64,000 nt of DNA from an uncultured Acidobacteriota bacterium (GTDB lineage Bacteria; Acidobacteriota; Terriglobia; Terriglobales; Acidobacteriaceae): assembly GCA_963820895.1 (NCBI GenBank), contig CAWGBW010000004.1, forward strand, positions 10,023-74,022, written 5' to 3'. A program made the translations under genes and the position numbers. Shown here piece by piece: positions 8,405-26,511 of the stretch (the first letter of the stretch is position 1; each line of letters begins with the position of its first letter). A model generated the notes under the pieces. That model had not been told where the DNA came from, did not search any database, and was given only the letters and a program-made list of their open reading frames with translations.

Positions 8405-8479
8405 ACTGGCGTTATATCGCCATAATGCTCTTTGATCTTGTATCCGAAGTGAGCGTCAGGCCTTTTTCGTCAGTGCGGC
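8400..8479 (+). repeat. attC-like imperfect palindrome
   Basis: GCTGAAC|TGGCGTTATATCGCCATAATGCTCTTTGA...GTGAGCGTCAGGCCTTTTTCGTCAG|TGCGGC. It overlaps the stop codons of both flanking ORFs. Confidence 0.6.
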
Positions 8480-9811
8480 GCGAATTCGCTGCCCTACGAT
8501 GGCATCCTCGCCCGGCTGCAACATCCACACACCCACTACGAGCGTATTCGCATCCGCCGGGATGCCCTGGTTCGGCTTCTGCCCCGTGTTCGGATTCAAT
8601 TCAATCGAAGGCGTCCCATTCCGCAGCTCCTCAACGATTTGCGCAGTCGTATTGCCAATGACCGTCGGATCAAACCGTATCAGCAGATGCGGAACATGAT
8701 TCGCGATCTTCGGTACCACCGTCTCCGTCTTCACCGAAGGGATGGCCTTCACCGCATCGGCAATCAGATCAGCCCGCTTCTGATAGTCGCCCTGCATGGA
8801 CTCTTCCGTATGCGACAGCACCCAGTCGAGCGCGGCAACCATGCCCACAATCTGTTCCTTCGCCACCTTCATGCCGCGGCCGATTCCGTCTCCGGGATTA
8901 TTGTTCGCATGGGCCAGGTCCGTCAGGACTTTCCGGCCAAGCAGCAGGCCCGCGTTTTGTGGACCACGAATTCCCTTGCCTCCGGAAAAGGCCACCAAGT
9001 CAAAACCCATGCCGGTGTATTTCCATAAATTCGAAATCGGAGGCATGTCCGCCGCCGCATCCAGGTGACACGGAATGTTGTACTCGTGCGCCACGCGAAG
9101 CCACTCTTCACGGCCAATCTGCGCGGTCGCTGCGATTCCATCCTCATCCTCAGCAGCGTTGAAAAAATTCGTCATCACCGCATTGCCCGCGGCGCATGCG
9201 CGCTTGTAGTCATCGAGCGTCACCACCTCGGTCACCCGCGCTCCACACAGATACATCGCGCGGTCATATTCATAGCGATGCGCACTCTGCACAATGACCT
9301 GGTTCTTCATCCCGTCAATCGCCTGCGGCATATCCAAAATGCGCGCGTTGTTTGCATACTGCAGGCACGCAGCAGTTGCCAAAGTGATGGCGCCCGAAGC
9401 CCCCGACGTCACGACCGCTCCCTCGCACTTCAGGAGCCGGGCGATGTACTCTCCGGCCTTCTGCTGCAAATCGTGCAACCGCACCGGATGCAGCGCCGCC
9501 TTCTGCACCGCCGCCAGAACCTCCGGAGGCATACACGCCGCCGTCAGCGTTGTGTAAGTCCCAGCCGCATTGATAATGGGTCGCACGCCCAGCTTCGCGT
9601 AGTAATCCTCTCCCTCTGTCTCTGCCGGGGATGTCATCCCCGATGAAAGTCCCTTGGCGGACGAAACCAGCGGCGCCAGTCCCAGCCCCGCAGCCAGCGA
9701 GCTGGACAAGCGGAAGAAGCTCCGACGCGAAAAAAAACCTTTTAATGATTCAGCCGATCCTGACATGTGAGCGCTCCTTGAGCCCGGCAATTCGCGGACA
9801 AATTCTCGCAT
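8456..9811 (-). CDS. SelA/DgaE-like PLP-dependent enzyme with a twin-arginine signal (cassette ORF)
   Basis: SRRSFF Tat motif, and FSGGKGIRGPQNAGLLLG (a SelA-type PLP-lysine motif). The start may be the ATG at 9766. Confidence 0.75.
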   Translation of the reverse strand: MREFVRELPGSRSAHMSGSAESLKGFFSRRSFFRLSSSLAAGLGLAPLVSSAKGLSSGMTSPAETEGEDYYAKLGVRPIINAAGTYTTLTAACMPPEVLAAVQKAALHPVRLHDLQQKAGEYIARLLKCEGAVVTSGASGAITLATAACLQYANNARILDMPQAIDGMKNQVIVQSAHRYEYDRAMYLCGARVTEVVTLDDYKRACAAGNAVMTNFFNAAEDEDGIAATAQIGREEWLRVAHEYNIPCHLDAAADMPPISNLWKYTGMGFDLVAFSGGKGIRGPQNAGLLLGRKVLTDLAHANNNPGDGIGRGMKVAKEQIVGMVAALDWVLSHTEESMQGDYQKRADLIADAVKAIPSVKTETVVPKIANHVPHLLIRFDPTVIGNTTAQIVEELRNGTPSIELNPNTGQKPNQGIPADANTLVVGVWMLQPGEDAIVGQRIRAALTKKA

Positions 9812-9851
9812 GGAAGTCCGTTGCCGGGAGCAAAGAATTTGTCCCCCCTGG

Positions 9852-9927
9852 ACATAATTCTTGAAGAAGACTCCGCTGCTTTTTTTGAGTCGTTCTGAGT
9901 GTAAAGGCCTGGTTTCGTCAGTTATCG
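9852..9927 (+). repeat. attC-like palindrome with a degenerate left arm
   Basis: TTGAAGAAGACTCCGCTGC...TGAGTGTAAAGGCCTGGTTTCGTCAG|TTATCG. Confidence 0.45.
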
Positions 9928-9968
9928 TTTCGGCTAGATGGAGTCTAACGTAAGATCAGGGAACGAAG

Positions 9969-10577
9969 ATGGTTAACGACTTCTCCACCGAATATTCAGA
10001 GCGGAGCGATGACGAGCTTTTGCTGTTGGCATCTGATCGGGCTTCATTAACAACAGAAGCCGCTGCCGCTTTAGACGCTGAATTGATTCGTCGCAATCTC
10101 AGCGAGTCCGACCAAGTTAAACATCAGCAATTCGTCAAGCGGAATGAGCAGCGTGAAGCAAAGAAGCGTCGCCGGAAAATATTCGGCACCCGGAGAGACC
10201 GGGGTGCATGGCTTGACCTGCTCTGGACAATACTAGCGATGGCCCTGATTTCGTTCACCTACCTCGCGCTACCCAGCCGCTACCACATGAAACCCGATTG
10301 GCAGGAAGCGGCCGTGCATATGATGTTCGTGTCAATTTTTATCGCAGTCGTTGGCAGGTCGTGGTGGCGAAAGATCGGCTTTGGGATATCGTTGATCTTG
10401 TCGTCTGCCATCCACCTTTTCGTTGTCCATGCTTGGATACAGCGGGTCGGAAATCCCAGCCGCGGGCAAAGAAGACTCGCGATCTTGCTTGGCTTTGTGC
10501 TGTTCTTTGCTGTCTATGGACTCGGGCGCCTGTTGCGGCGGAACTTCTACGCCACAGAATCTCGTAACCACACATAA
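9969..10577 (+). CDS. Hypothetical membrane protein (cassette ORF)
   Basis: 202-aa ORF with a charged N-terminal region followed by 4 TM segments. Confidence 0.6.
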   Translation: MVNDFSTEYSERSDDELLLLASDRASLTTEAAAALDAELIRRNLSESDQVKHQQFVKRNEQREAKKRRRKIFGTRRDRGAWLDLLWTILAMALISFTYLALPSRYHMKPDWQEAAVHMMFVSIFIAVVGRSWWRKIGFGISLILSSAIHLFVVHAWIQRVGNPSRGQRRLAILLGFVLFFAVYGLGRLLRRNFYATESRNHT

Positions 10578-10580
10578 AAG

Positions 10581-10600
10581 AGAACGAGTACGTTCTTTTT
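10581..10600 (+). terminator. Small hairpin plus T-run
   Basis: AGAACG-AGTA-CGTTCT followed by TTTT. It abuts the next attC-like site. Confidence 0.4.
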
Positions 10601-10672
10601 AGTTGTTGAAAGTCGCGATTTCACTCAAAATCCTCCTCAATGAGCGCTATCGCCTGCTAACGTCAGTTGTGA
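10595..10672 (+). repeat. attC-like imperfect palindrome
   Basis: TAG|TTGTTGAAAGTCGCGATTTCACTCAAAA...CTCAATGAGCGCTATCGCCTGCTAACGTCAG|TTGTGA. Confidence 0.7.
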
Positions 10673-10673
10673 A

Positions 10674-11225
10674 TCAGGGCCGAGTTGCTGCACTACGATT
10701 CAGGGCCAGACGTACAACCGTGACACTGATCCCGAAAATGGCTAGCGCCACGCCACCCGCGATGGACAACAGCGCCCACATCCCAGCCGCTCCAATCGAA
10801 CCTTCCTGACGTGTAATAGTGATCACGGCAAGACTGATTGCTAGTGGCCCGGAACCAGAGGTCGCGACAAAAGCAGCGAAAACAAAGAGCAGGCGTTCCA
10901 CGACACCAGAGCACAAGGCTATGCGCGGCATCAGACGCCAAACAGTCACTGCCATCCCAGTTGCAATGAAAAACGGGGTGACCATGACCAGCAGGAAGAA
11001 CACGAAACCCGCTCGGCCATTCAAATTGCTTGTCAGACGAATCCCACTTGCGACCGCCACGACAGCGCAAAAAAGCGCGAGGGTGATTGCCCCTGTGGTA
11101 CCGGGGCGTGCCGGAGATTCAGGCATTTGGATGTTGCTCCGTGCATAGAAGTGTACGGCGCAGGACGGCAACGTAGTGATGACTGTCGTAACATCGCCTC
11201 TCTCACTCATCGTCCGATTACACAC
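10674..11225 (-). CDS. Hypothetical membrane protein (cassette ORF, start uncertain)
   Basis: 183-aa hydrophobic ORF. The stop lies 2 nt from the repeat end, and the start codon lies 13 nt from the next repeat. Confidence 0.5.
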   Translation of the reverse strand: MCNRTMSERGDVTTVITTLPSCAVHFYARSNIQMPESPARPGTTGAITLALFCAVVAVASGIRLTSNLNGRAGFVFFLLVMVTPFFIATGMAVTVWRLMPRIALCSGVVERLLFVFAAFVATSGSGPLAISLAVITITRQEGSIGAAGMWALLSIAGGVALAIFGISVTVVRLALNRSAATRP

Positions 11226-11237
11226 GAATCGTTCCGA

Positions 11238-11298
11238 TGTGAACTGAATCGAAAGCAGTCGAAATTTGAGCGCAAACGCCTGATTTCGTCAGCTACTC
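11238..11298 (+). repeat. Short attC-like palindrome
   Basis: TGTGAAC|TGAATCGAAAGCAG...TTGAGCGCAAACGCCTGATTTCGTCAG|CTACTC. Confidence 0.65.
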
Positions 11299-11856
11299 GT
11301 GAACCGCGGTGTCGTGAGCCGATTGCCGACCCTGACGTGAGCCTCGGGCTGCAAACCACGACAACAGGAGCGCGACGTTGCCAACGTTCAGCACTGCTAC
11401 GCTTCTATAAGAGTCCATCAATGGTAGAGACAAGAGAGCACAAATCGCGGCAAGGACAAGACAAGCCCGGTCCATTCGGGTGATGTGGGGTTTGCCCGAT
11501 GCAAAACGGACGCACAAAATGCCCATTGCAAACAGGCTCGCTGCCAGACTAAGCATGAGGAGCGGCGACACGTGCAATGAACTGGCGAATAACGTTGCTC
11601 CCAACAACCGCAATGCCGCATAGCCGACGAATCCAACGAATCCCCCAGCCCAGAACCTAACGGTAAACGCCATTATGACGATGCTGAGGATGATCAGCAG
11701 CCAGCCAATGACTATTTGAGACGAACTTGCCGCTACTTGGAGAAGTGTGCAACCGGAGAAAAAAGCAGCCGCGATGCAAATGGCGGCCACAATTTTTCCC
11801 CCGATCAGAAACCCAGATTTAACCTGCTCCTTCACCGGCCGTCTGTCGCGTTTCAC
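11293..11856 (-). CDS. Hypothetical membrane protein (cassette ORF)
   Basis: 187-aa ORF with 5-6 TM segments. The stop codon sits on the repeat boundary. Confidence 0.6.
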   Translation of the reverse strand: MKRDRRPVKEQVKSGFLIGGKIVAAICIAAAFFSGCTLLQVAASSSQIVIGWLLIILSIVIMAFTVRFWAGGFVGFVGYAALRLLGATLFASSLHVSPLLMLSLAASLFAMGILCVRFASGKPHITRMDRACLVLAAICALLSLPLMDSYRSVAVLNVGNVALLLSWFAARGSRQGRQSAHDTAVHE

Positions 11857-11887
11857 GTGGCTAATTCTATTGCTCCGAGCCTCTAAA

Positions 11888-11985
11888 GCCCAACAGGTGG
11901 CGAAAAATCGCGATTACACTCATTGACCGGAGCGGCCCATTTTCTGGGGTCAATGAGTGAAATCGCCTGGTTTCATCAATTGAGC
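11888..11985 (+). repeat. attC-like imperfect palindrome
   Basis: GCCCAAC|AGGTGGCGAAAAATCGCGATTACACTCATTGACC...GGTCAATGAGTGAAATCGCCTGGTTTCATCAA|TTGAGC. Confidence 0.75.
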
Positions 11986-12022
11986 ATCCCTCGGCAAACG
12001 CGACGAACGGTGATGCATTGGC

Positions 12023-12436
12023 CTAACGCCTAGTCCGCCTTAGGGATGCTAGGACAGGCAGTCCCCTCATGGTCAGCAACAAACCCGAACATATCAAACC
12101 GCTTAACAAACCTAGAACTCCAAGAAAGACTGACATAATCCAGTACGGCTCGTGCCACTTTATAAAATATCCCGCAATGGCAGCGAAAATGGTAAGAACA
12201 AGTGGAATTGCTAGAAGCCCAGACCACAGATATAGCCGTTTTTCATCGCTGGTCAAATGTTCCCACTCACGTCTACCGGTCTCATAGCGATTGCCGCAGA
12301 CACAAAGATAATATTCCCGCCCAATGGCCGTGTGCCGCCCATGGTGCGGCGGTGCAGCCCAAAACGTACTCCCACAACGGATGCAATGACGCCGCCGAAC
12401 CAAGATCAGAACGAGAATGTCTAAGATGCCGAACAT
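12023..12436 (-). CDS. Zinc-ribbon plus 2-3 TM hypothetical protein (cassette ORF)
   Basis: 137-aa ORF with CIRC...CVC cysteines followed by hydrophobic helices. Confidence 0.55.
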   Translation of the reverse strand: MFGILDILVLILVRRRHCIRCGSTFWAAPPHHGRHTAIGREYYLCVCGNRYETGRREWEHLTSDEKRLYLWSGLLAIPLVLTIFAAIAGYFIKWHEPYWIMSVFLGVLGLLSGLICSGLLLTMRGLPVLASLRRTRR

Positions 12437-12522
12437 CTGAGGATGTCTCCAAGTGCCATAAAGCGGAAATTGTACCGTGACTTGCCTAGTCTGGTAACGA
12501 AGAGATGGCTAGCAGAACGTAT

Positions 12523-12616
12523 GCTATTTTAATGAAATATCGCTATTACACTCATTGAGGGTTCTGGCAGTCCCGTCCGGTCAATGAGTGTAAACGGCTG
12601 ATTTCGTCAGCTACCA
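12523..12616 (+). repeat. attC-like imperfect palindrome
   Basis: TTTAATGAAATATCGCTATTACACTCATTGAGG...GGTCAATGAGTGTAAACGGCTGATTTCGTCAG|CTACCA. Confidence 0.7.
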
Positions 12617-12621
12617 TCGGC

Positions 12622-13389
12622 TCATTTTGGCGGTTCACTGCAAAACAGGTAACCAGAGCCAAGTTTTTCAACGTCCAGACGCCCGCGTGCTTCGTAGAAG
12701 TCTCTCCACGCATCTGGCATCACCTCGCAGATTTCACCACATCCCTGCTTCTGCGCAAGACACGCGAAGTCAAAGCGCGATGCACGGTGGCGCTCAGCTT
12801 GTGTTGCGCGTGGAGTCAACGATGATTGGAGACCGAAGCCATTTTTGCTTTTGAAGTCTCTGCGTTGAATGGAATAGGAATCTGAGATGTGGGCGTCAAC
12901 TCGCTCGTATTTTGGAAGAGCCTGACTCTCCCTCTGCGCAAATCCCCTCCAATTGCCATCGGACGCCTTGTACCACACCCAAAAGGAATACTGGAGAACA
13001 GTACCGTTTGCCATGTGTATTTCCGCATAACCCCACCAATCTTCAGATCCTAGACGGGGAAGGGATGGATGCCTCAGGTACACCGTTTCCATTGTGCTGT
13101 CGTTTAGGGAAATCAGGAACGTGCAGTTTTCAATGTGTTCGCGTGCTGAGCAGTTCTCTTTGTAATAGTCCCGACCGTCTGGCGGTGGCGCATTACCAAA
13201 CTCCCGTGCGATAGCCTCAGCAGCGTGGTTGTCAGACTTGCCGATTGCCAGTTGCTGAATCTCACGCACCAATTTCTGCGCCCGGCTAACGCGATAAGCG
13301 TTGTCATGCTGTGTATACGAGGCCCATGAAACGACACCCACACCGACGGCAATCGAGACAATTAAGAGTGTCAGTAAAGTCTTTCGCAT
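12622..13389 (-). CDS. Secreted or membrane-anchored hypothetical protein (cassette ORF)
   Basis: 255-aa ORF with an N-terminal signal/anchor (MRKTLLTLLIVSIAVGV). Confidence 0.6.
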   Translation of the reverse strand: MRKTLLTLLIVSIAVGVGVVSWASYTQHDNAYRVSRAQKLVREIQQLAIGKSDNHAAEAIAREFGNAPPPDGRDYYKENCSAREHIENCTFLISLNDSTMETVYLRHPSLPRLGSEDWWGYAEIHMANGTVLQYSFWVWYKASDGNWRGFAQRESQALPKYERVDAHISDSYSIQRRDFKSKNGFGLQSSLTPRATQAERHRASRFDFACLAQKQGCGEICEVMPDAWRDFYEARGRLDVEKLGSGYLFCSEPPK

Positions 13390-13431
13390 CTATCTAATTG
13401 GACACCACGCAATGGTCGGCTGGCGTCGGCA

Positions 13432-14145
13432 TCACCATCCAGCCCGTGCAGCAGGACTTCGGGTTAAGAGGACGCGGCTCACAACCACGACCCACACGAC
13501 GCCGATGATGGGCGAGACGAACCGCGAATAGGCGCCGTACGGTGACCAGAATCCGTCCCTCAGCCACGTGGTGCCGCCCAGCAAGACGAGGACGACGGCT
13601 GCGACCCCGGCCGCGAAGAGCGCATTCGAGATCAGCCGGGCCCGCCAAAGCCCGAAGGATCCGGACATGATCAGCATCGCCCGCGGGAACGAAGTCAAGA
13701 CGACGCCGGCCCACGCTAAGTCGTTCAGTCCCGATGTGAACGTCTGATTTCCTGAACCGGCGATCGAGTACGCGAGGGCTGCGACCACGGTGATGAGCAG
13801 GAGGAAAAGCGCTCCCACCGCGGCGCTGGAAGCGGTTGCCGCCGCGCCCCAGCCGTCTTGCCCGGCATCCGCCAAGGTGTTCCGAAGCGCCGCCGCGAAC
13901 CACATCAGGTTGAGGATCGCCAGCCCGGAGAACACCGCGGCGATCAGGATCCGCATGCGCTCGCCGTCGTAGAACACGACGAGTGCGTCGGGCGACGCGC
14001 CAACCTCCGGCTGATGGCCGTAGACGAGGTACGCGATGATGAAGCAGAAAATGGATTGAATTCCGCCCGTGCGCCACAAGCGTTCCCAGAACGCAGGGGT
14101 GGTGTACACGCTGGTGGAGGATGAGGCTGCGCTGGATGCACTCAT
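13432..14145 (-). CDS. Hypothetical 6-TM membrane protein, visibly more GC-rich than its neighbours
   Basis: 237-aa ORF with a strong SD (AGAGGAG). The antisense ORFs across it are typical of high-GC coding sequence. Confidence 0.65.
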   Translation of the reverse strand: MSASSAASSSTSVYTTPAFWERLWRTGGIQSIFCFIIAYLVYGHQPEVGASPDALVVFYDGERMRILIAAVFSGLAILNLMWFAAALRNTLADAGQDGWGAAATASSAAVGALFLLLITVVAALAYSIAGSGNQTFTSGLNDLAWAGVVLTSFPRAMLIMSGSFGLWRARLISNALFAAGVAAVVLVLLGGTTWLRDGFWSPYGAYSRFVSPIIGVVWVVVVSRVLLTRSPAARAGW

Positions 14146-14156
14146 GGGGATCTCCT

Positions 14157-14296
14157 CTTGAACTCAAGGTGACTTCGGACGCCCCGCGGCCCGAGACATT
14201 GCGGTAGCGCACTCTTGTTGGGCCGATTTGGGGTGAAATCTTAGCTCCAGAGCCGTCGCGAGTCAATGAGAGCGGACACTTTGGGGAAGTGCCAAC
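14157..14296 (+). repeat. Degenerate long attC-like element
   Basis: CTTGAAC|TCAAGG...GCGGTAGCGCACTCTTGTTGG...AGTCAATGAGAGCGGACACTTTGGGGAAGTG|CCAACG. It abuts the next copy. Confidence 0.4.
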
Positions 14297-14379
14297 GAAC
14301 CTGTTGGCGAAAAATTCCCATAGCACTCTTTGACGAACGAAGTGATAACGTCTGCGGCACTGACGTATGCCTGTTGAGA
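14290..14379 (+). repeat. attC-like imperfect palindrome (subtype 2)
   Basis: TGCCAAC|GAACCTGTTGGCGAAAAATTCCCATAGCACTCTTTGAC...CACTGACGTATGCCTG|TTGAGA. Confidence 0.6.
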
Positions 14380-14392
14380 TACCCAACCGGCC

Positions 14393-15097
14393 TTATTTTG
14401 TTTTGACGCGTACGACTTCGATACGCAACATCTGGCCTGGGAGGGGATGGTCCACGACACCTGGAATGATCTGCTGCCTGTCGGGGGCGGTCTTGCCATT
14501 GTCGATCTGCCGATCGTTCCCGTCGGCAACCCGGATGACAACAGTGGCACCGGCTGCTACGGCAATGGTTGCCTCGAAGTCTTCCTTGTAGATGACATGT
14601 CCTACCGAGGGATAGTGATTCAGCCAATAGGTTTGTTTGGGTTCCGAGACTTCGATTCCCCATTGGGACCAATCCACCGTGCTAACCGTACCACCGGCCT
14701 TGAAGTATGGGTGTATGGGGTCAGGCGTGTCTCCCCCAAGAATTGTGGTGGGTTCGAAAATACCGCGAATGCGAAGAGTCACGTCGTACACGGTTCCATG
14801 CTTTCCGCCAAAGGTGAATGAGCGCTCGTGTAACCGGTCATGGAGGCAGGTGTCAGGCTGGGGCGGGTATTGCGCAGTGCAATCGTCGTGCAAGAAGAAG
14901 TGCGCGAAGCCTGCGGCAACCTGCATGAGTTCGTCTGACGGCGTAGCCGGAGCAGGGACACTCATTTGCTCGAAATAAACCTTCCCATGCCCGCAACCGA
15001 AAGCTGCGAGGCAGAGAACAGTCACCGCTCCTCGGAACACCTCTGGCGTGAAGCAGAGTCGGAGCCGCCTGAAGTTTAGTGTCTTGAATGTCCGCAT
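14393..15097 (-). CDS. Secreted hypothetical protein (cassette ORF)
   Basis: ORF 14393..15136 trimmed to the ATG at 15097 (SD GAGGGG). Lipoprotein-like signal ...LCLAAFGCG. Confidence 0.6.
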   Translation of the reverse strand: MRTFKTLNFRRLRLCFTPEVFRGAVTVLCLAAFGCGHGKVYFEQMSVPAPATPSDELMQVAAGFAHFFLHDDCTAQYPPQPDTCLHDRLHERSFTFGGKHGTVYDVTLRIRGIFEPTTILGGDTPDPIHPYFKAGGTVSTVDWSQWGIEVSEPKQTYWLNHYPSVGHVIYKEDFEATIAVAAGATVVIRVADGNDRQIDNGKTAPDRQQIIPGVVDHPLPGQMLRIEVVRVKTK

Positions 15098-15102
15098 GAC
15101 CC

Positions 15103-15203
15103 CTCGGGCTTTGAAGACTGCCCCAGCGCGGTGCAATAGTCAAGGTTCGTCGGGAACTCCATCGAAAACTCCAATCGGCCTGTTAGCAACAGTTATCATT
15201 CCG
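15103..15203 (+). repeat. attC-like element with a poor left arm
   Basis: TTTGAAGACTGCC...TCCAATCGGCCTGTTAGCAACAG|TTATCA. The right arm closely matches the copies ending at 10672 and 20470. Confidence 0.45.
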
Positions 15204-15487: not shown

Positions 15488-15564
15488 AGCCAATTGAAGT
15501 AACGTCCTATTACACTCATCCGATGAGAGAGGATGAGTGCAATGGCCTGGAACTTTAGGTTCGT
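15488..15564 (+). repeat. attC-like imperfect palindrome
   Basis: AGCCAAT|TGAAGTAACGTCCTATTACACTCATCC...GGATGAGTGCAATGGCCTGGAACTTTAG|GTTCGT. Confidence 0.65.
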
Positions 15565-15580
15565 CTTAGGAGTTATAGCC

Positions 15581-16492
15581 ATGGGAAACATTTTTGGCAG
15601 AGCCGCTCTAGCGGGCGTCGTAATGTTTGCTGCAAACGGTGGGCTCCTCGGCGCAGCAAATGCCGGTGGATCGTCCATTCTGGAGCCGGCGGCGGGTGCG
15701 TTGCTCGGACAGTACTACGGCGCCGGTAATCTGGCCCAGACCACGGCGAAGCTCGGGCGGACACCTCCCGTTCACCTCACGTATTACGCGTGGACCGACG
15801 ACTGGACAAGCACGGTGACCAAAGCAGATCTGGCCGCTGGACGCATCCCTCTCGTCAATTGGGAACCCCACAAGATCGACTTCACCAAGATCGTCGACGG
15901 AAGCCTCGATGCCACGATAAAGGCGCGTGCAAACAGCTCCAAAGCGCTGGGGAAGAAGTTCTTCCTCGACTTCGCAGCGGAGATGAATGGTGACGAGGCG
16001 TGGGATGGCAACAATGCTCCTCTGTACGTTGCTGCCTATCGACATATTCACGACATCTTTCTTGCTGCGGGCGCTACCAATGTGATCTGGGCGTGGTGCC
16101 CAAACGTCACGGACATCAACGGAGGTAACAAGAACACGATGGACTACTACCCAGGCGATGCCTACGTCGATTGGACTGGGGTCGATGGGTACAACTGGGG
16201 TACGACCAACGGTGGCTGGCAGACCTTCGAACAGGTTTTCCGGGAAATCTACCCGCTCCTCGCAGCCAAGAAAAAGCCGATCATGATTGGAGAGATGTCT
16301 TCTGCTCAAGTGGGGGGAGACAAGGGCAAGTGGATCGATGAAATCATTCCCACCCTTCGCGCCAGTTTCCCGCTCATCAAATGTCTCGTCTGGTTCGACA
16401 TCAACAAGGAAGCCGATTGGCGCATCAGCTCGTCTCCCGAATCGGAAGCGGCGTTCATTCGCATGGCAAGAGATCCTTATTTCAATCCGTAG
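15581..16492 (+). CDS. Glycoside hydrolase family 26-like (beta-mannanase/endoglucanase) (cassette ORF)
   Basis: ORF 15533.. trimmed to the ATG at 15581 (SD TAGGAG just after the repeat). The motifs FAAEMNGDEAW and YPGDAYVDWTGVDGYNWG are GH26-like. Confidence 0.75.
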   Translation: MGNIFGRAALAGVVMFAANGGLLGAANAGGSSILEPAAGALLGQYYGAGNLAQTTAKLGRTPPVHLTYYAWTDDWTSTVTKADLAAGRIPLVNWEPHKIDFTKIVDGSLDATIKARANSSKALGKKFFLDFAAEMNGDEAWDGNNAPLYVAAYRHIHDIFLAAGATNVIWAWCPNVTDINGGNKNTMDYYPGDAYVDWTGVDGYNWGTTNGGWQTFEQVFREIYPLLAAKKKPIMIGEMSSAQVGGDKGKWIDEIIPTLRASFPLIKCLVWFDINKEADWRISSSPESEAAFIRMARDPYFNP

Positions 16493-16549: not shown

Positions 16550-16623
16550 AGTGGCATTGTCATGGAATCAATTACACTCATCATCCAGTCAATGAGCGTT
16601 ATCGGCTGGTCTCGTAAACCATC
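16550..16623 (+). repeat. attC-like imperfect palindrome
   Basis: TTGTCATGGAATCAATTACACTCATCATCC...GTCAATGAGCGTTATCGGCTGGTCTCGTAAA|CCATCC. Confidence 0.65.
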
Positions 16624-16737
16624 CAGAGCCCCTCTCCGCGTGCGGCTTCTCTTGTGAATTGTTCTCGGTGTACCCATCATCCGGGTTCTTGGACGAAGCG
16701 TCGATTGGATGTCGTGCTTCACAGCGGGAAAAGATAA

Positions 16738-17953: not shown

Positions 17954-18025
17954 ATCCAACCGCTGTTGAAGCATCGCGATTACACTCAAAAGGCCTCGAT
18001 GAGCGCCTGTCCTCAACAGTTGACT
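17954..18025 (+). repeat. attC-like imperfect palindrome
   Basis: ATCCAAC|CGCTGTTGAAGCATCGCGATTACACTCAAAAGG...CTCGATGAGCGCCTGTCCTCAACAG|TTGACT. Confidence 0.7.
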
Positions 18026-19670: not shown

Positions 19671-20210
19671 ATGAAAGCAACGGTCGCGGCTCTCTTCTTC
19701 TCGTCCTTCCTTTTGGCATCCACTGCCTTTGCCCAAAACGCTTCCACAAGCACGGCCGTGGCTTCAGGCTGCGGCACAGTCGACATCAAGTTCGATGTCA
19801 AGACGGAAAAGTCCCAGCACCCCGCCGCCCAGCCGGAGCCTGGCAAGGCGGTGATCTATTTCGTCGAAGACGACACACAATTCCAATCCCGGCCCTTGCC
19901 GATCACGCGCATCGGGTTGGACGGAACCTGGGTGGGAGCGAACCATGGCAATTCCTACTTCTACCTGACCGTCGATCCCGGGGAACACCATCTCTGCGCC
20001 AATTGGCAGTCCTTCGTCGGACTCGGCGCCCACCATCAGTCGGCCGCTGCGCACTTCACCGCTGAAGCTGGACAGTCCTACTACTTCACGGTCAAGAACA
20101 CGTGGCTGCGGGAAGTGAGGATCATGAAGATCGCATTGGAGCCGCTCGACAGCGATGAAGGCCAGCTTCTGGCTAGCCGGTTCGCGTTCAGTAGTTCTCA
20201 TACGAAGTAA
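19671..20210 (+). CDS. DUF2846-like secreted protein (cassette ORF)
   Basis: 179-aa ORF with SD GGAGG and a signal peptide. Contains the pattern VIYFVED...IGLDGTWVGANHGNSYFYLTVDPGEHHL. Confidence 0.7.
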   Translation: MKATVAALFFSSFLLASTAFAQNASTSTAVASGCGTVDIKFDVKTEKSQHPAAQPEPGKAVIYFVEDDTQFQSRPLPITRIGLDGTWVGANHGNSYFYLTVDPGEHHLCANWQSFVGLGAHHQSAAAHFTAEAGQSYYFTVKNTWLREVRIMKIALEPLDSDEGQLLASRFAFSSSHTK

Positions 20211-20384: not shown

Positions 20385-20470
20385 CCCTAACTGTTGATAA
20401 ATCTCCATAGCACGTTTTGACCCAACAAAGACGAATAGGCGACGCAAGCTTGTGTCGTTGCCTGTTAGCA
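20385..20470 (+). repeat. attC-like imperfect palindrome (subtype 2)
   Basis: CCCTAAC|TGTTGATAAATCTCCATAGCACGTTTTGAC...GTGTCGTTGCCTG|TTAGCA. The ends CCCTAAC and GTTAG are complementary. Confidence 0.6.
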
Positions 20471-21405: not shown

Positions 21406-21424
21406 TCCCTCACAGTCACCACCT

Positions 21425-21638
21425 ATCGTAGATTCGCCGCAGCTCGCCAAATCGTTGATGTTCGGCGATGGGGAAACTTGAGCGCTATCGTACCCAGCTT
21501 CTGTTCCTGCAGCACTTCGCCCACTTCGTCGAGCAGACAATACCAGCTGTTGCGATCTCCCAGATCCAATCCAACGGTTAACTTCTGCCGAGAGATTTTC
21601 TTGCTCGGCCTTTGCCGCTACGGTGCTAACCTTCTTCA
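21425..21638 (-). pseudogene. N-terminal remnant of a second IS110-family transposase
   Basis: Hand translation shows an out-of-frame ATG (MKKVSTVAAKAEQENLS), then ..KLTVGLDLGDRNSWYCLLDEVGEVLQEQKLGT.., which is the DEDD N-terminal motif of IS110 transposases. It ends after about 70 codons. Confidence 0.5.
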
Positions 21639-21699
21639 TTGTCGGCCTCTTTTTTATCTGTGCCTTGAGCACGTCGATAACTTGGGAGCGTACACTGCA

Positions 21700-23157
21700 T
21701 CCCGTCCGGAGACTGGCCTTCTCCCTCGAAAACACTTGGCTCAGGCGATACGCGGCTGGAGAGTGACTGAGTGTCCGAGGCTCTCTAAACGCTTGACTAG
21801 GTATCGCTTCAAACCCTCTGCGTGGAGTCGGTCGAAGTAATTGCTGCCCAGATCGGTGTAGGCGCAGCGCTTCCGTTGCAGGTGATATCCGATCACCAGG
21901 ATGCTATGGGCAACGGCGATGATGGCGCACTTTCTGCCTCGACGAGCAGCAAGCTTCTTAAACTGAGCTGAAAGATAGGTGTTCTTCGTGCGAGCCGCAG
22001 CCCATGCGGATTGACAAGCCATACGACGCAACCAGGGACTGCCTTTACGGATCTTGCTGCTGATCCGCTTGCCTGCACTCTCGTTGTTTCCGGGACACAC
22101 CCCTGCCCAGCTAGCAAGATGTGCTGCAGTTGGGAACTGACTAACATCTGCTCCCATCTCTGCGATGAAACTCCAAGCCGCCACACGATCCACCCCGGGA
22201 ACCGTGACCCACCGATTCAATGCCTCCGCTAAGTCCAGGTGCTGTTGCCCGAGTTGCTCGAGTCGAGCGTCTAACAACTCGATTTCAGTTTCGATAAAGT
22301 ACAGTTGGCGAAGCAAGCTCTGTAGAAGAAAGCGGTGATGATCCCGCACCTGGCCTTCTAGCGCTGCCTGTAATTGTGGGATCTTGGCGCGAAGGTGCCC
22401 AAGAGCGAGGTCCGCAAGTCGTTCGCAGTTCTCTTCACCGCCGATGATAGCCGCCAGAATCGCTCTGCCACTCTTACCCAGAGTATTGCTGGCAACGCTT
22501 GCGAGCTTGAGATTGGCATCCTCGAGCACTTTCTGAATCCGGCTTGCGATACGAGAATGCTCCTGCGACAAGCTAGTTCGTGCCCTGGTGAGATCACGCA
22601 GATCGCGAATCACCAACGGGGGTATAAAGCTGCCCCGCAGCAGTCCGTGTTGCAAAAGTTCCGCGATCCACTGACAGTCCTTCGTATCCGTCTTGCGTCC
22701 CGGAACTGCCTTGATGTGCTGGGCGTTTGCCAGAACGATCTGAAAATGACTTTCGAGAACGTTCCACACCGGCTTCCAATAAACGCCCGTGGATTCCATC
22801 GCCACGTGCTCAACGCCAAACCCCTGCAACCACACGACCAACTCTCGAAGCTCGCGGGTCGTGCATCCGAAGCGGCGAATGTGCTTCAGCGGTTTGCCCG
22901 ATTGCGCTATCAGAACACAAGCAGTGATGGAGGACTTGTGCACATCCAGCCCGCAGCACCGCGGATACAAAACTTCCATAGCTGTCTCCTTCCGCCGTGC
23001 GACGTAAGGATGCACAAATCGCGAAAGTCTCCCTCGCGTGCTCCTCTCCGAAGAGAAGGCGACAGTCCGTTGTTCTCAACGGCATCCAGGGTCAAACTCA
23101 TCCGCGGGCTCTCAGGCTCCACTAAGGCGAACGACCGCGTACGTCCACGGCTCCGAT
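21700..23157 (-). mobile_element. IS110-family insertion sequence (ends not resolved)
   Basis: The transposase CDS plus about 180-230 bp of 5' leader. A 14-bp palindrome TGCTCGATCGAGCA at 23185-23198 may belong to the IS end or to the adjacent attC-like site. IS110 elements lack classical inverted repeats. Confidence 0.55.
21741..22979 (-). CDS. IS110 family transposase
   Basis: ORF trimmed to the ATG at 22979 (SD GGAGA). Contains MEVLYPRCCGLDVHK...MESTGVYW and the C-terminal ...PGVD...ASWAGVCPGNNESAGK motifs. Confidence 0.9.
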   Translation of the reverse strand: MEVLYPRCCGLDVHKSSITACVLIAQSGKPLKHIRRFGCTTRELRELVVWLQGFGVEHVAMESTGVYWKPVWNVLESHFQIVLANAQHIKAVPGRKTDTKDCQWIAELLQHGLLRGSFIPPLVIRDLRDLTRARTSLSQEHSRIASRIQKVLEDANLKLASVASNTLGKSGRAILAAIIGGEENCERLADLALGHLRAKIPQLQAALEGQVRDHHRFLLQSLLRQLYFIETEIELLDARLEQLGQQHLDLAEALNRWVTVPGVDRVAAWSFIAEMGADVSQFPTAAHLASWAGVCPGNNESAGKRISSKIRKGSPWLRRMACQSAWAAARTKNTYLSAQFKKLAARRGRKCAIIAVAHSILVIGYHLQRKRCAYTDLGSNYFDRLHAEGLKRYLVKRLESLGHSVTLQPRIA

Positions 23158-23234
23158 AGCCTAACTCGTTTTCATTGGCCGTTGTGCTCGATCGAGCATG
23201 TAGAACTCATCCCATCTGTTAGCGACAGTTGCGC
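23158..23234 (+). repeat. attC-like site abutting the IS
   Basis: GCCTAAC|TCGTTTTC...GAACTCATCCCATCTGTTAGCGACAG|TTGCGC. The right arm matches the family. The left part may be IS sequence. Confidence 0.45.
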
Positions 23235-23281
23235 GACCGTGTGGCGCGTTATCGCGATTTGCCGAAAGCCCAATCGCGGCG

Positions 23282-23791
23282 CTAGACGGTGTCGATTTGA
23301 GCCGCGACGATCTGTGCGAACCTGTCCACGAGTGGAAACGAATCGCTGCTGACTGATACGACAATCGTGCCCTTGCGGAATTGAATCTCGAATCGCCCGC
23401 CATTCTTGAATGTAGACAAGTACCCTTCATCACCAATCTTCAACCTTTCGACCTTCCATCCCCTTGCGACTTTTCCTTCGCGAACGGGGCTTAGGGACGT
23501 CTTGGCATCAGTGCTGGAATTGACTTGAAAAATCATCACCTCGACACTTTCTCGTGTGCCGCTTTTCGAGGTGTGATCCCATGCCTCCACAACGAGGGGT
23601 CTTTGGCTAGGTACGAGGGGCGGTGGCGCATTCAAAATACCCCTCGTGTACTGCCACCCAGGCTCAGTGCTTCGAATTGCGTTCTCGACTTTGGCCACCA
23701 GTGGCGTTTCGGCACGGGCGTCGTGTGTCGCGACGACAAGCATGGCGAGCGTAAGCACGACAATTGAGAGGGTCAACAAAGGGTTTCGCAT
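23282..23791 (-). CDS. Secreted hypothetical protein (cassette ORF)
   Basis: ORF trimmed to the ATG at 23791. Signal peptide MRNPLLTLSIVVLTLAMLVVA. Its 5' leader and signal peptide are paralogous to those of 12622..13389. Confidence 0.6.
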   Translation of the reverse strand: MRNPLLTLSIVVLTLAMLVVATHDARAETPLVAKVENAIRSTEPGWQYTRGILNAPPPLVPSQRPLVVEAWDHTSKSGTRESVEVMIFQVNSSTDAKTSLSPVREGKVARGWKVERLKIGDEGYLSTFKNGGRFEIQFRKGTIVVSVSSDSFPLVDRFAQIVAAQIDTV

Positions 23792-23846
23792 CGTCCTTAT
23801 TGGACACCGCGCAGAGAAAATGTGCGATGGAATCTTTTGCTGAGGG

Positions 23847-23916
23847 GTGTAACTGGCGAAAAATCGCCATATCACTCATCGTCGGGAATGAGCGTTGACG
23901 CCTGGTTCAGTTGCTT
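23847..23916 (+). repeat. attC-like imperfect palindrome
   Basis: GTGTAAC|TGGCGAAAAATCGCCATATCACTCATCG...AATGAGCGTTGACGCCTGGTTCAG|TTGCTT. Confidence 0.75.
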
Positions 23917-23960
23917 TGATCCTCGCGGCATAACAACTTAACAGCCGGACGGAGATTGCC

Positions 23961-24527
23961 TCACTTCGGCTCCATCGGCCCAAATTTGCGGTCGTAGATG
24001 TCAGGGTAGTTCTTCCGGAGGCAATCGGGACACACAGTATGGGAGAAGTCGGCCTCACTGTGCTCACGGATGTAGGTCTCCATTTGAGCCCACGTGTCGG
24101 CCTCAGTTCTGATCTGCTTGCAGTAGGAGCAGACTGGCAAAACACCACGGAGAATTCGGATTTCATTCAAGGAGGTTCTCAACTTCCTGTTCGCCTCCTC
24201 CAAGGACCAGATTGCTTGACGCCGCTGTTTTTCGAGCGATGCAACCAGCAATGACACAGAACCAAAGACCACTGCCTGGACAAGCCCGGCGAACGTAACA
24301 TCCAGAATATGGGGAGTCGGGTCAAAGAACCAGTCAAAGAGGAGAACCGAAAGAAGCGCAGCAGACAGTCCGGCCGTGGCTCCGGCATATCTTGATGCCA
24401 CGATGACCGCAGCAATAAACAACACGTCACGACTGTGGATCTCGATCCGAGAGATAGGGAAAGTCAGAAGGGTGGCGACCACGACGCTCGCCACCACAAT
24501 CGACGCCGCCCGCATCGCAGGATGCAT
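23961..24527 (-). CDS. DUF4118-like membrane sensor module with a C-terminal Cys-rich (CxxC...CxxC) tail (cassette ORF)
   Basis: ORF trimmed to the ATG at 24527 (SD GAGGG). The longer start would lie inside the repeat. Three TM segments, a coiled coil, then VCSYCKQIR...HTVCPDC. Confidence 0.6.
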   Translation of the reverse strand: MHPAMRAASIVVASVVVATLLTFPISRIEIHSRDVLFIAAVIVASRYAGATAGLSAALLSVLLFDWFFDPTPHILDVTFAGLVQAVVFGSVSLLVASLEKQRRQAIWSLEEANRKLRTSLNEIRILRGVLPVCSYCKQIRTEADTWAQMETYIREHSEADFSHTVCPDCLRKNYPDIYDRKFGPMEPK

Positions 24528-24580
24528 AAAACCCTCGGACCGAACCGAAGGGACTGGAACCACGACTACCCGCAGATACT

Positions 24581-24638
24581 CCACAACGGTTGCCGCCGAA
24601 AGTCAATGCGTGTAATCACCTGATTACATCCGTTAAGA
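24581..24638 (+). repeat. Short attC-like palindrome
   Basis: CCACAAC|GGTTGCCGCCGAAAG-TCAATGCGTGTAATCACCTGATTACATCCG|TTAAGA. Confidence 0.55.
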
Positions 24639-24673
24639 TGGCCGTTGCGAATTCAGGTCTCTGAGGGGCAGAC

Positions 24674-25093
24674 ATGAGCGTTCAAGCAGACATTTACGTC
24701 TCACGCGACGACGAGGAAGCAATCCGGTACAACAGCGAGCCAGCTACGTTCAAAGACCGCGAGCAATACACAAGTTTTACGGTGCTAGAGCTTTCGAGGT
24801 TATGGGCAGAGTTTCGAGGCGTCGAGTGGGACGTGAATTCGTTAGATGAATTTCATACGGTGCTTGTCCAAGATGGCGGCGAACGCACCATCAAACGTTT
24901 GCCGAAATCTATGACTGGTGAACTGGCGCGGTTGACACCAGACCAGATTTCGGTTGCTGCCACCAAGTGGGCAGCCACAGACGAGATGTCCTGTGAAACG
25001 GCTGATGTGCAGCCGATTATTGAAGGACTCGTGCGTTTGGCCAAGGCGGCATCTGAGACTGGCCGGAACATCTATTTCTGGAATTGCGTTTGA
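24674..25093 (+). CDS. Hypothetical cytoplasmic protein (cassette ORF)
   Basis: 139-aa ORF with SD GAGGGG. The stop codon overlaps the next repeat. Confidence 0.55.
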   Translation: MSVQADIYVSRDDEEAIRYNSEPATFKDREQYTSFTVLELSRLWAEFRGVEWDVNSLDEFHTVLVQDGGERTIKRLPKSMTGELARLTPDQISVAATKWAATDEMSCETADVQPIIEGLVRLAKAASETGRNIYFWNCV

Positions 25094-25173
25094 TGACACC
25101 GTTGGCGAAAAATCGGCGTTTCACTCATTGACGGAGCACATGGATTGTGGTTGGACTTGGTTCACAGGTGGCA
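25093..25173 (+). repeat. attC-like imperfect palindrome
   Basis: ATGACAC|CGTTGGCGAAAAATCGGCGTTTCACTCATTGACGG...TTGGACTTGGTTCACAG|GTGGCA. Confidence 0.6.
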
Positions 25174-25545
25174 CTCACCGTAATCCCGAGAAACACTGTC
25201 GACGCGAAAGGCGTGCCCCGATTCCACTTTGAACTTGTGGCCGCGCAAAGCTAAACGCTGGTGAGGCTTCACACTGCTCGGCGGATTCGACAACGCATAA
25301 ATAGTGCCATCCTTCGCGGTCAGACTCAGGCCTTTGTCGGATTCTTGGACACAGCCGTCCAGCGACGTGTGGGCACGATGCACTAGATAAATACCGACGC
25401 CCACTCCAACTCCAACCGCAATAGCGGCCCCAATAACCGCTGCTTTACAGCCTGGGCAGTAGGAGGATGCCCGCGAAGGAGACGGTGTTACCAAAACGAG
25501 TGTAATGCAACACAGAACGGCAGTTGTTCTGCTGAGTCGTTTCAT
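25162..25545 (-). CDS. Hypothetical signal-peptide/TM protein (cassette ORF)
   Basis: ORF trimmed to the ATG at 25545 (SD AGGAG). The stop codon lies inside the repeat. Confidence 0.55.
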   Translation of the reverse strand: MKRLSRTTAVLCCITLVLVTPSPSRASSYCPGCKAAVIGAAIAVGVGVGVGIYLVHRAHTSLDGCVQESDKGLSLTAKDGTIYALSNPPSSVKPHQRLALRGHKFKVESGHAFRVDSVSRDYGECHL

Positions 25546-25617
25546 CGTCGACTCCTGATCAATGGCGGTGCAAATGTTACGCCCGCCCTCATCGCAGGTC
25601 AACTCGAGTCAGGTCTC

Positions 25618-25651
25618 GGTAGTGTCCTAATTTGCAGATTAGGACACTACC
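25618..25651. promoter_or_regulatory. Perfect 14-bp inverted repeat flanked by CAGGTCTC direct repeats
   Basis: GGTAGTGTCCTAAT-TTGCAG-ATTAGGACACTACC, with CAGGTCTC at 25610-25617 and 25652-25659. It lies about 75 bp upstream of the minus-strand ORF 25162..25545. Confidence 0.4.
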
Positions 25652-25743
25652 CAGGTCTCCATGGGCGATGTCCCACTATATTCAAGACTTTATATCCCAC
25701 CGACGAATTGTCTTCATGCCACGCGAGACATCCTCCACCCACC

Positions 25744-25820
25744 TCTCCACCTGTCGTAATATCCCCATCTCACTCATTCGTCGTCAATGAGGCAATATGT
25801 CCAATACTGATCAGTTTCGC
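25744..25820 (+). repeat. attC-like imperfect palindrome
   Basis: CTCCAC|CTGTCGTAATATCCCCATCTCACTCATTCG...GTCAATGAGGCAATATGTCCAATACTGATCAG|TTTCGC. Confidence 0.7.
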
Positions 25821-25866
25821 GTGTTGGAATGTGGGACCATCCTAGTAGAATCTGCGAAGGTGGATT

Positions 25867-26136
25867 ATGGCGCTGACAATCGTGGCAGTGATCTTCGGTG
25901 TTTTCGCTATTGGTCTGATCGTCCTGCTGATCTACAAGAGCACACTCACGATGCACAGGGATGATCAGTTGTTTCTGGATGACGCGAGTTCGCACATGCA
26001 CGCGGAGCAGACAGAACTGTTGACCAAGGTCAACCGGCTTATCATCCCCACGCGCGTGTTCGGCGTCGGGTCCGGTATATTTCTTATGGTGCTCACGACG
26101 ATGTGGCTCTACGAGAAGCTGAACGCAGTACAGTAG
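25867..26136 (+). CDS. Small 2-TM membrane protein (cassette ORF)
   Basis: 89-aa ORF with SD AAGGTGG and clean hydrophobic helices. The overlapping 180-aa minus-strand ORF has an implausible composition. Confidence 0.55.
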   Translation: MALTIVAVIFGVFAIGLIVLLIYKSTLTMHRDDQLFLDDASSHMHAEQTELLTKVNRLIIPTRVFGVGSGIFLMVLTTMWLYEKLNAVQ

Positions 26137-26199
26137 CGTCGAGAGCGTGCCACTTGCTTCATCCTGCCAGCATCCTTGCGTATCCAAGATGAAACCCAG

Positions 26200-26270
26200 C
26201 TCGTAGTTGGCGAAATACTTATTACGCCCAAGACCCGTAATGAGTGAAATGGTGATTGACCAAGGCTCTC
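26200..26270 (+). repeat. attC-like imperfect palindrome
   Basis: TCGTAG|TTGGCGAAATACTTATTAC...GTAATGAGTGAAATGGTGATTGACCAA|GGCTCT. Confidence 0.5.
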
Positions 26271-26316
26271 CTGAAATGTTCCCACTCAGTACCTCGGCGC
26301 CAATGTCCTTTGACAA

Positions 26317-26511
26317 TTAGCGCGATATGTCTTTGGGAACGGGTAGGATGAGTTGGCGCCGGGCAACGATCTTCCCCGGGCCGGTAAGGGATTTGCTGAC
26401 AGCCTCAAGCTCTTCAAAAGACCTCTGAATCGTGAACAGTTCTTCCCGAGCGGCTTCCAGTTGGTCGATTAGGCGGCTGATTGTTTTGGGCGATTTATTA
26501 GACTCCCGCAT
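26317..26511 (-). CDS. Small coiled-coil hypothetical protein (cassette ORF, weak)
   Basis: MRESNKSPKTISRLIDQLEAAREELFTIQRSFEELEAV... No clear SD. Confidence 0.3.
   Translation of the reverse strand: MRESNKSPKTISRLIDQLEAAREELFTIQRSFEELEAVSKSLTGPGKIVARRQLILPVPKDISR

Follow-up and report, generated by a model that had tools for sequence, protein, structure and literature searches.

A uniformly oriented repeat array with genes facing both ways in an uncultured member of the Acidobacteriaceae

The DNA analysed here (the window, 64,000 nucleotides, G000:C4:10023-74022; positions below are those of the window unless a contig is named) belongs to the genome of an uncultured acidobacterium of the family Acidobacteriaceae (G000, 6.4 Mb, 57% G+C). 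It contains an array of a polar repeat whose copies separate short gene units in the manner of an integron cassette array. The first-pass annotation of the window had pointed out that all repeat copies face the same way and that the genes between them face both ways in nearly equal numbers. Our comparison with related genomes leads to the reading, held with about even confidence, that these are Terriglobia-specific polar junction sites delimiting units that are exchanged inside the sites, without an integron integrase and without a common promoter. For this integron-like gene-shuffling array, which lacks an integron integrase, we found no published description.

Repeat sites and genes of the array

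Repeat copies were located with a covariance model built from 10 clear aligned copies and run unfiltered; the fold used for the model has three parts: the outer stem, a 5-bp stem preceded by a 4-nt mismatch, and a 10-bp inner stem that closes a variable loop. Thirteen strong matches (E < 1e-6) span positions 7716-26657 of the window, and all 13 lie on the plus strand. Matches of the model on the minus strand are shadows of the same near-palindromic sites and score 20-40 bits lower. Weaker or half copies, the latter detected with separate left-arm and right-arm profiles, were found at 9875-9927, 14300-14360, 20387-20459, 24604-24630, 25100-25132 and 25747-25820, every one of them again on the plus strand, so that the uniform polarity noted earlier is borne out. 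By the arm profiles the right arm stands alone at 9896-9927 and 24604-24630 and the left arm at 14302-14334 and 25100-25132. Genes were assessed by Pfam domains, by paralogues and by a codon-usage score trained on 1746 long open reading frames (ORFs) of G000. The features of the array are listed in order; co-oriented and opposed refer to the direction of the repeat sites.

6787..6873, + strand: tRNA-Leu(CAG), 0.8 kb left of the first repeat
7716..7797, + strand: repeat site 1; left arm, loop, right arm; 62.6 bits
7829..8404, + strand: S-adenosylmethionine (SAM) methyltransferase gene, co-oriented; Pfam 5e-15; coding score 19
8402..8479, + strand: repeat site 2; 46.6 bits; right arm overlaps the stop of the next gene
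8456..9811, - strand: gene for a pyridoxal phosphate (PLP)-enzyme-like protein, 451 aa, opposed; coding score 88; 78-84% nt identity in many same-genus genomes
9875..9927, + strand: repeat site 3; right arm good (9896-9927), left arm degenerate
9969..10577, + strand: cassette gene, 202 aa, co-oriented; 53% aa match to a cassette of locus L100; 85% nt in G424
10599..10672, + strand: repeat site 4; 63.8 bits
10674..11225, - strand: weakly supported ORF, opposed; coding score 9; listed start within repeat site 5
11179..11298, + strand: repeat site 5; long loop; 35.9 bits
11293..11856, - strand: cassette gene, opposed; 74% aa paralogue in the C1 array, opposed there too
11893..11985, + strand: repeat site 6, the best copy; 75.6 bits; fold -22 kcal/mol
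12023..12436, - strand: weakly supported ORF, 137 aa, opposed; 71% nt match in G514; no Pfam family
12525..12616, + strand: repeat site 7; 65.8 bits
12622..13389, - strand: weakly supported ORF, 255 aa, opposed; coding score 9; 22% aa match in L089
13432..14145, - strand: cassette gene, opposed; a single-gene unit in G528, with gene and left arm shared at 91% nt
14300..14360, + strand: repeat site 8; left arm only, 14302-14334
14393..15136, - strand: cassette gene, 247 aa, opposed; coding score 27
15493..15564, + strand: repeat site 9; 33.6 bits; a degenerate counterpart precedes the same gene in G499 and G504
15533..16492, + strand: GH26-like gene, co-oriented; coding score 65; directly after the PLP-like gene in G499 and G504
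16556..16624, + strand: repeat site 10; 52.1 bits
16738..17877, - strand: esterase gene, opposed; Pfam 8e-28
17959..18025, + strand: repeat site 11; 53 bits
18448..18519, + strand: repeat site 12; 62.6 bits
18468..19583, + strand: VWA-like gene, co-oriented; true start probably later than listed
19671..20210, + strand: DUF2846 gene, co-oriented; Pfam
20387..20459, + strand: weak repeat copy; 14.5 bits
20605..21405, + strand: methyltransferase gene, co-oriented; Pfam
21621..23218, - strand: IS110-family element, type A; transposase 21741-23015; adjoins a right arm at its outer stem (TTAGCGACAGTTG)
23282..23875, - strand: weakly supported ORF, opposed; coding score 9; signal-peptide-like start
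23849..23912, + strand: repeat site 14; 56.4 bits
23961..24584, - strand: DUF4118 gene, opposed; Pfam 2e-12
24604..24630, + strand: right arm alone; arm profile
24674..25093, + strand: cassette gene, 139 aa, co-oriented; between the lone right arm and the lone left arm
25100..25132, + strand: left arm alone; 26 bits
25162..25602, - strand: weakly supported ORF, 146 aa, opposed
25747..25820, + strand: weak repeat copy; left arm 25751-25778
25867..26136, + strand: 89-aa gene, co-oriented; multi-copy family
26317..26571, - strand: weakly supported small ORF, opposed; DNA 91% conserved in G494
26584..26657, + strand: repeat site 18, the last strong copy; 55.4 bits
26720..27112, + strand: cassette gene, co-oriented; 51% aa paralogue in the C2 array, co-oriented there too

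The consensus of 174 full copies from G000 and related genomes reads, from left to right, arm TAGTTGGCGAAAaATCGCCATTACACTCATTGAC, a variable loop and arm GTCAATGAGTGTAATCGCCTGtTTaCGaCAGTTA. Sites are 67-119 nt long, polar and imperfectly palindromic, with loops falling into length classes of 8-11, 19-24 and 28-32 nt. The arms are of equal length and align base for base without indels, and the site has a direction because they consistently differ at a few positions (ATC vs CAG, and the first bases). Their inner 15 nt are perfect inverted repeats beginning TG...CA; a symmetric 3-4-nt central mismatch (aATC opposite CTGt) separates the outer from the inner stem. In an Rfam scan the tRNA alone was matched, the repeat belonging to no known RNA family.

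The same polarity rule is seen outside the window. G000 has ~60 copies in about nine clusters with uniform polarity within each, and polarity is uniform in 60 of the 65 related loci with at least three copies, where copies follow each other at a median spacing of 686 nt. For a relation between polarity and the direction of replication the GC skew was too weak to tell, and in the near-complete G070 the matches switch strand three times. Another stretch of this array type occupies the contig start, upstream of the window (C4:1213-4526). About 13 kb of repeat-free DNA lies between it and the window array, and the contig end may therefore cut a longer array. No tRNA gene was found beside other arrays in 17 loci.

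Eight genes on the plus strand are well supported, with that at 24674 as a weaker ninth, as are at least six on the minus strand besides the IS110 transposase. Pfam, coding statistics and paralogues thus agree on genes in both directions, and the suspicion that most minus-strand ORFs are spurious does not hold, even with six of them weakly supported. No repeat site separates the weakly supported ORF at 12622..13389 (-) from the next gene at 13432..14145 (-). At the right end of the array a longer ORF (25774-26316, minus strand) was discarded as the antisense shadow of the 89-aa gene at 25867-26136 on the plus strand. This small gene (stretch 25796-26231) has no Pfam family; four paralogues (72-76%) lie outside arrays in G000, and the family has dozens of copies genus-wide, up to five per genome.

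Some minus-strand ORFs had been described as starting only 13-55 nt from the neighbouring repeat. These gaps are in part an artefact of choosing the longest ORF, because the GTG at 11225 lies inside the repeat copy 11179-11298, whose left arm would encode the first 15 codons of the ORF, and because the GTG at 11856 lacks a Shine-Dalgarno sequence, whereas GGGGGA precedes a GTG in the same frame 66 nt downstream. The distance from start codon to arm was measured in 93 single-gene units, defined narrowly as one gene with a right arm on one side and the following left arm on the other; its median was 47 nt where the gene is co-oriented and 77 nt where it is opposed.

Gene direction is equally mixed on a larger scale. 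The arrays of G000 contain 22 co-oriented and 29 opposed genes, those of its relatives 85 and 79. A strict set (coding score of at least 15, with a margin of at least 10 above any antisense ORF) from ~140 Terriglobia loci gave 134 co-oriented vs 124 opposed genes; counted as 219 protein families these are 111 co-oriented, 103 opposed and 5 mixed, or 52% co-oriented (confidence interval 45-59%). Domain-bearing genes also face both ways within a single 40-kb array of G014. Direction was constant in 24 of the 29 families with several members and in three paralogue pairs of the window. Recurring cassettes keep their orientation, so gene and flanking arms travel together, and orientation is a fixed property of the unit.

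Movement of units and points of exchange

A unit holds one gene, sometimes two or three, and units 95-100% identical were found in differing contexts in arrays and genomes. Within G000 the DUF4118 unit (23854-24626) is duplicated at C4:1215-1990 with 95% nt identity, and the unit adjoining that copy (C4:1975-2820) recurs at C5:245500-246345 with 99%. Three pairs of loci from different metagenome-assembled genomes (MAGs; L033/L092, L092/L147 and L013/L097) have units 97-99% identical between unrelated neighbours. In G499 and G504, which belong to the same genus as G000, the PLP-like gene (8456-9811 in the window) is directly followed by the GH26-like gene (15533-16492) with a single degenerate site between them; G000 has seven more units at this joint. 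On its left the degenerate site is similar to the left arm at 9866-9890, itself degenerate, and on its right to the right arm at 15530-15564. The PLP-like gene of G356 is adjoined by a unit that in G000 sits in the C8 array (96% identity), homologues of other window cassettes are scattered singly across different genomes of the genus, and the array is absent from the syntenic tRNA-Leu locus of same-genus G011. Judged from these sequence comparisons, units do move: gain, loss, duplication and transfer between arrays and genomes all seem to occur.

Shared DNA invariably ends inside a site, and at no single nucleotide. Most commonly the right arm, the cargo and the left arm are common to both copies, the loops and partner arms are unrelated, and the shared DNA ends at the inner arm tips. 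Shared units also have derived arm variants in common, hence the arms belong to the unit by descent. Of ~13 informative ends most lie at the inner arm tips; another 2 map to column 19-22 of the right arm, and the left arm has 2-3 at its outer end. Column 19-22 is the border of the central mismatch and the outer stem, a position analogous to the integron G|TT. We read the centre of the site as the usual exchange region. Two further apparent ends, at left-arm column 22-23, were dismissed as they are really insertions of an IS110 element (type C, see below).

Shared units that span from a right-arm inner tip to the next left-arm inner tip (99% for L033/L092 and for the C4/C5 copies) and carry perfect 15-nt inverted repeats at the inner arms, TG...CA, are also what would be expected of non-autonomous transposons resembling mobile insertion cassettes (MICs) or miniature inverted-repeat transposable elements (MITEs). 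The right arm and the next left arm would then serve as terminal inverted repeats, copies would insert beside earlier ends, and the unit at 24604-25132 with its lone right and lone left arm would be a case in point. We consider this explanation very unlikely, since target-site duplications are not consistently present, no transposase gene with these ends was found in 113 repeat loci, the two arms of one unit do not covary, and an additional rule would be required for tandem insertions all to face the same way. Moreover the extremities of the array are complete sites and not half sites, both in the window and in G014; arrays bounded in this way fit the insertion of a one-site circle into a resident site better than they fit tandem transposons. 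MICs share their ends with known insertion sequences (IS) and make target duplications, and pdif sites are 28 bp long and alternate in orientation. As in MICs and the pdif (Xer) modules, the passenger genes face either way between short ends for recombination or transposition, and the units have no recombinase of their own. Unlike MICs they show neither the ends of a known IS nor target duplications, and unlike pdif the sites measure ~85 nt, have variable spacers and are all co-oriented.

Comparison with integron attC sites

Integron cassettes are generally promoterless and read from a common promoter, Pc (PMC11014356, PMC5027507), and a cluster of attC sites without an integrase (CALIN) is a known arrangement (Cury et al. 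2016, PMC4889954). The arrays could therefore be ordinary integron remnants of this kind, with a divergent but homogeneous attC family made and recombined by an integrase that was since lost from nearly all of these genomes or visits on mobile elements. Their architecture agrees with this. The array rule (two or more co-oriented sites, under 4 kb apart) applies, cassettes measure ~0.7 kb, and the sites lie within the attC length range (67-119 vs about 57-141 nt). Outer stem, 3-4-nt mismatch, inner stem and variable loop recall the R box, unpaired central spacer (UCS), L box and variable terminal structure (VTS) of attC. GTT-purine is the majority reading at the right end, two of the exchange points lie at the right-arm border of loop and outer stem that corresponds to G|TT, and IS110-family elements of the IS1111-attC group target attC sites as well. 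The lack of a nearby intI gene agrees too, for it is missing from most published CALINs (PMC4889954) and by definition none is needed.

Sedentary chromosomal integrons and CALINs resemble the arrays in further respects: their co-oriented imperfect palindromes, less than 4 kb apart, mostly enclose single unrelated genes, cassettes turn over between close relatives and recur elsewhere, and IS110 elements sit in the sites. Here, however, exchange appears to occur mostly near the site centre and not in the 3' R' box, genes face both ways equally, and the repeat-bearing genomes lack IntI.

When the defining features of attC (PMC5027507) were tested singly, the sites themselves also departed from the attC pattern. 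The inverse core and core, 5'-RYYYAAC...GTTRRRY-3', are not matched, AAC/GTT being only weakly conserved. In the 174 copies the right end reads G60 T66 T75 R94 and the left end A59 G55/A37 T67/C28 T97 G95; the left end is thus AGTT(G), a direct rather than an inverted match to the right end, and AAC is a minority form. The consensus has arms of equal length and no extrahelical bases, which on one arm of attC set the recombined strand. Both strands fold equally well (-15.4 vs -15.8 kcal/mol). Compensatory pairing was not detected, 80% of cells being paired, the same as after shuffling; six variable stem positions had a paired fraction of 0.598 vs 0.615 in shuffled data, with no covariation across the loop or across the unit, nor was any found in the left arm's own hairpin (68.5% vs 68.9%). 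Sequence rather than structure is conserved, which points to a protein reading duplex DNA. A direction shared with the site, as expected of cassettes read from Pc, was found in 52% of the 219 families.

The integron integrase and the repeat do not occur together. We detected no IntI (TIGR02249) above the cut-off in G000, where the best match scored 66 bits vs a curated 265, and none in the 113 repeat loci. It is present in the family and the order, in 2 of 151 genomes sampled from the family, neither of which carries the repeat, and in 1 of 401 order genomes. The IntI-bearing Terriglobia genomes are G111, G122 and G401; in G111 the gene sits on a contig too short to show its attC sites. The repeat, on the other hand, was found in 43 of the 151 family genomes, a count that includes the unpublished G025, on which no other result depends. 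In an exact-pattern scan of 185,579 species genomes the matches listed came from Acidobacteriota, save two contigs of a MAG labelled Verrucomicrobiia; those listed are peat and soil MAGs of Terriglobia, Acidobacteriaceae and Candidatus Sulfotelmatobacter. Among viral contigs and plasmids no match was found that would suggest carriage by phage or plasmid.

For these reasons we regard an origin of the arrays as integron remnants as unlikely. The array is integron-like in outcome and fails most tests of integron membership; it is set apart by its features. Of the integron-type premise of the first-pass annotation the architecture thus stands and the membership does not, and its proposal that the family is not used like classical attC sites, alone among the three that it offered (the others being promoter activity in the repeats and read-through from both sides), gains support from the absence of IntI, extrahelical bases, a strong AAC/GTT and structural covariation, from apparent exchange away from the 3' end of the site and from the unbiased gene direction in ~140 loci.

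Insertion elements, expression and a proposed model of array building

The sites attract insertion elements. The type A IS110 element of the window (1.6 kb) has five copies in G000 at 97-99% identity, the others being at C5:170072-171670, C5:227399-228996, C8:714792-716387 and C5:475496-476793. Two more IS110 types, B (406 aa) and C (349 aa), occur in this genome, and type A is twice directly followed by type B. Eight of the 11 IS110 genes of G000 lie within 2 kb of a repeat; their positions in the site are fixed and their orientation is invariably antisense to it, with type A at CTG|TTAGCGACAG in the right arm and type C between ATCGCC and ATTCACTCAT in the left arm. IS110 transposases were found in 15 of the 113 repeat loci and are the sole recombinases enriched near repeats. 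We nevertheless rejected them as the array recombinase, as the 40-kb array of G014 (~35 sites) has no IS110 and only 30 of the 43 repeat-bearing genomes have one. In related MAGs an IS1182/IS5-like element (DUF772 and DDE domains) lies within repeat arms (L009:5255-6809 and L101:3220-4776), with 4-bp duplications (AGGC, GGGA) and a terminal repeat GTGGGTGTTGAAAAAGTC that resembles the outer part of the left arm. The IS110 and IS1182-like elements are parasites that use the sites as landing pads, as is the case with repetitive extragenic palindromes (REPs) and attC. The IS1111-attC group and the REP-targeting IS110 elements insert into repeated palindromes, and the three IS110 types of G000 are similar in their fixed, antisense positions. 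This likeness describes the parasites of the array and not the array, as the IS110-free array of G014 illustrates.

No other recombinase could be connected with the repeats. Apart from IS110 transposases and Ser/Thr kinases nothing recurs in the flanks of arrays; those of the G014 array carry genes for a nitroreductase and a PadR regulator, and tyrosine recombinases are not consistently near arrays in five array-rich genomes. A conserved pair of adjacent Xer-like tyrosine recombinase genes (G000 C11:124928-126859, G044 C2:1008436-1009898, G014 C3:436975-438465) is separated from the nearest repeats by 15-40 kb in two genomes, with no evident link to them. Y1 transposases with long terminal repeats have been reported in Acidobacteria (Di Nocera et al. 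2013, PMC3733652). A link of the repeat to such REP-associated tyrosine transposases (RAYTs) or to terminal inverted repeats associated with tyrosine transposases (TIRYTs) was rejected: none of the seven Y1 genes of G000 has arms within 1.5 kb, and the Y1 gene found in 1 of the 113 loci (L072) has its own unrelated terminal repeats of GGGG type.

These results bear on another interpretation, in which the repeats are extragenic palindromes similar to REPs, bacterial interspersed mosaic elements (BIMEs) or REP doublets forming hairpins (REPINs). They would have spread into intergenic spaces and serve a structural or regulatory purpose (for example transcript insulation or termination, mRNA stabilisation or nucleoid-protein binding), and shuffling would be a by-product of homologous or short-homology recombination between copies rather than the work of a dedicated system. 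Both kinds of element are lineage-specific extragenic paired inverted repeats with a short spacer, as in REP doublets, and targets of IS110-type and, here, IS1182-type insertions (PMC3733652 for REP/BIME/REPIN). The absence of a linked recombinase, exchange points spread over the most conserved 15-nt inner repeat, and 'cassettes' that in relatives are often large ordinary genes (kinases, regulators) would all be understandable, and a palindrome serves either direction, which fits genes of both directions. In contrast to REPs, the arm is 35 nt and the site 67-119 nt long, the arms are polar, and the repeat flanks no Y1 gene. Copies are clustered in about 9 arrays and not dispersed, and their polarity stays uniform over up to 40 kb, which would not be expected of repeats that invade intergenic spaces at random. 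G070 shows no simple replichore pattern, terminator-like sequences are not enriched, and arrays of close genomes differ in content unit by unit. A purely structural or regulatory repeat therefore seems quite unlikely to us.

The suggestion that the repeats carry promoter activity received no support. Sigma-70-like sites in the array numbered 10 vs 9.7 expected. The palindrome does carry TTGAC and TGTAAT on both strands; these are 8-11, 19-24 or 28-32 nt apart, and a spacing of 16-18 nt almost never occurs. A promoter within the repeat was discarded on both grounds, a weak test for an acidobacterium. Intrinsic terminators were not enriched in the array, and a GGTGTCCAAT box had 46 matches vs 49 expected, its two exact copies being one homologous leader. 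Two otherwise unrelated minus-strand cassette genes share 81 nt at 73% identity (13331-13411 and 23733-23813), a stretch that spans leader, start codon and signal-peptide-like N-terminus.

We propose that sites specific to the lineage (Acidobacteriaceae, Candidatus Sulfotelmatobacter and relatives) delimit exchangeable units and that recombination takes place inside them, in most cases within or beside the conserved central inverted repeat. The sites would probably be bound as duplex DNA by a protein supplied in trans, not as folded attC hairpins. Serial joining of units at existing sites would give each array one polarity, and a unit would keep the gene direction it had at its formation, also when moved. 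Transcription would start from signals inside the unit; with neither an integron integrase nor a common upstream promoter, selection for one gene direction would be missing and a ratio of 1:1 could result. In a stronger form, which we put forward as a tentative possibility, Terriglobia would have a cassette system of their own, independent of an integrase, with ~85-nt polar duplex sites, central exchange, a recombinase encoded away from the arrays and self-expressed genes in both directions, serving as their main route of cassette-type gene turnover.

Several observations weigh against the proposal that sites delimit exchangeable units. In the window many copies show decay and a poor fold, and the array may therefore be a fossil. 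Short-homology recombination in the conserved 15-nt inner repeat would look alike, and the spread of exchange points to column 19-22 and the left-arm outer end could equally result from recombination between repeats by homology or short homology. The arrays have no linked recombinase, and that the exchange is site-specific is something we infer. We likewise infer that predicted signals within each unit drive expression. The large counts of gene direction depend on calls from a simple codon-usage score, and under the narrow unit definition 61 single-gene units are co-oriented vs 32 opposed; a mild bias towards co-orientation in the best-preserved units is possible.

Terriglobia are among the most abundant bacteria of acidic soils and peat, and classical integrons were present in about 3 of the ~550 genomes searched. 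If the arrays are an active cassette system, they would explain the exchange of accessory genes in this class. They would also form a natural contrast to integrons, with the same array logic and neither a common promoter nor an orientation rule, and this contrast suggests that the orientation bias of integrons stems from Pc-driven selection and not from the way arrays are built. The sites are, in addition, natural conserved landing pads for RNA-guided IS110 recombinases. Should the arrays be fossil or passive repeats, they would be of local interest only.

Two further observations concern neighbouring genes. The genes most often found next to the repeat code for Ser/Thr protein kinases with PD40 or TPR repeats, in 21 of the 113 loci and in four G000 arrays (for example L010, L012, L014, L022 and G000 C1:266398-268491). 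To the right of the window array a 324-aa ORF (28949-29923, plus strand) contains four tandem copies of a 164-nt unit (29022-29896), which are 65-73% identical and 201-258 nt apart.

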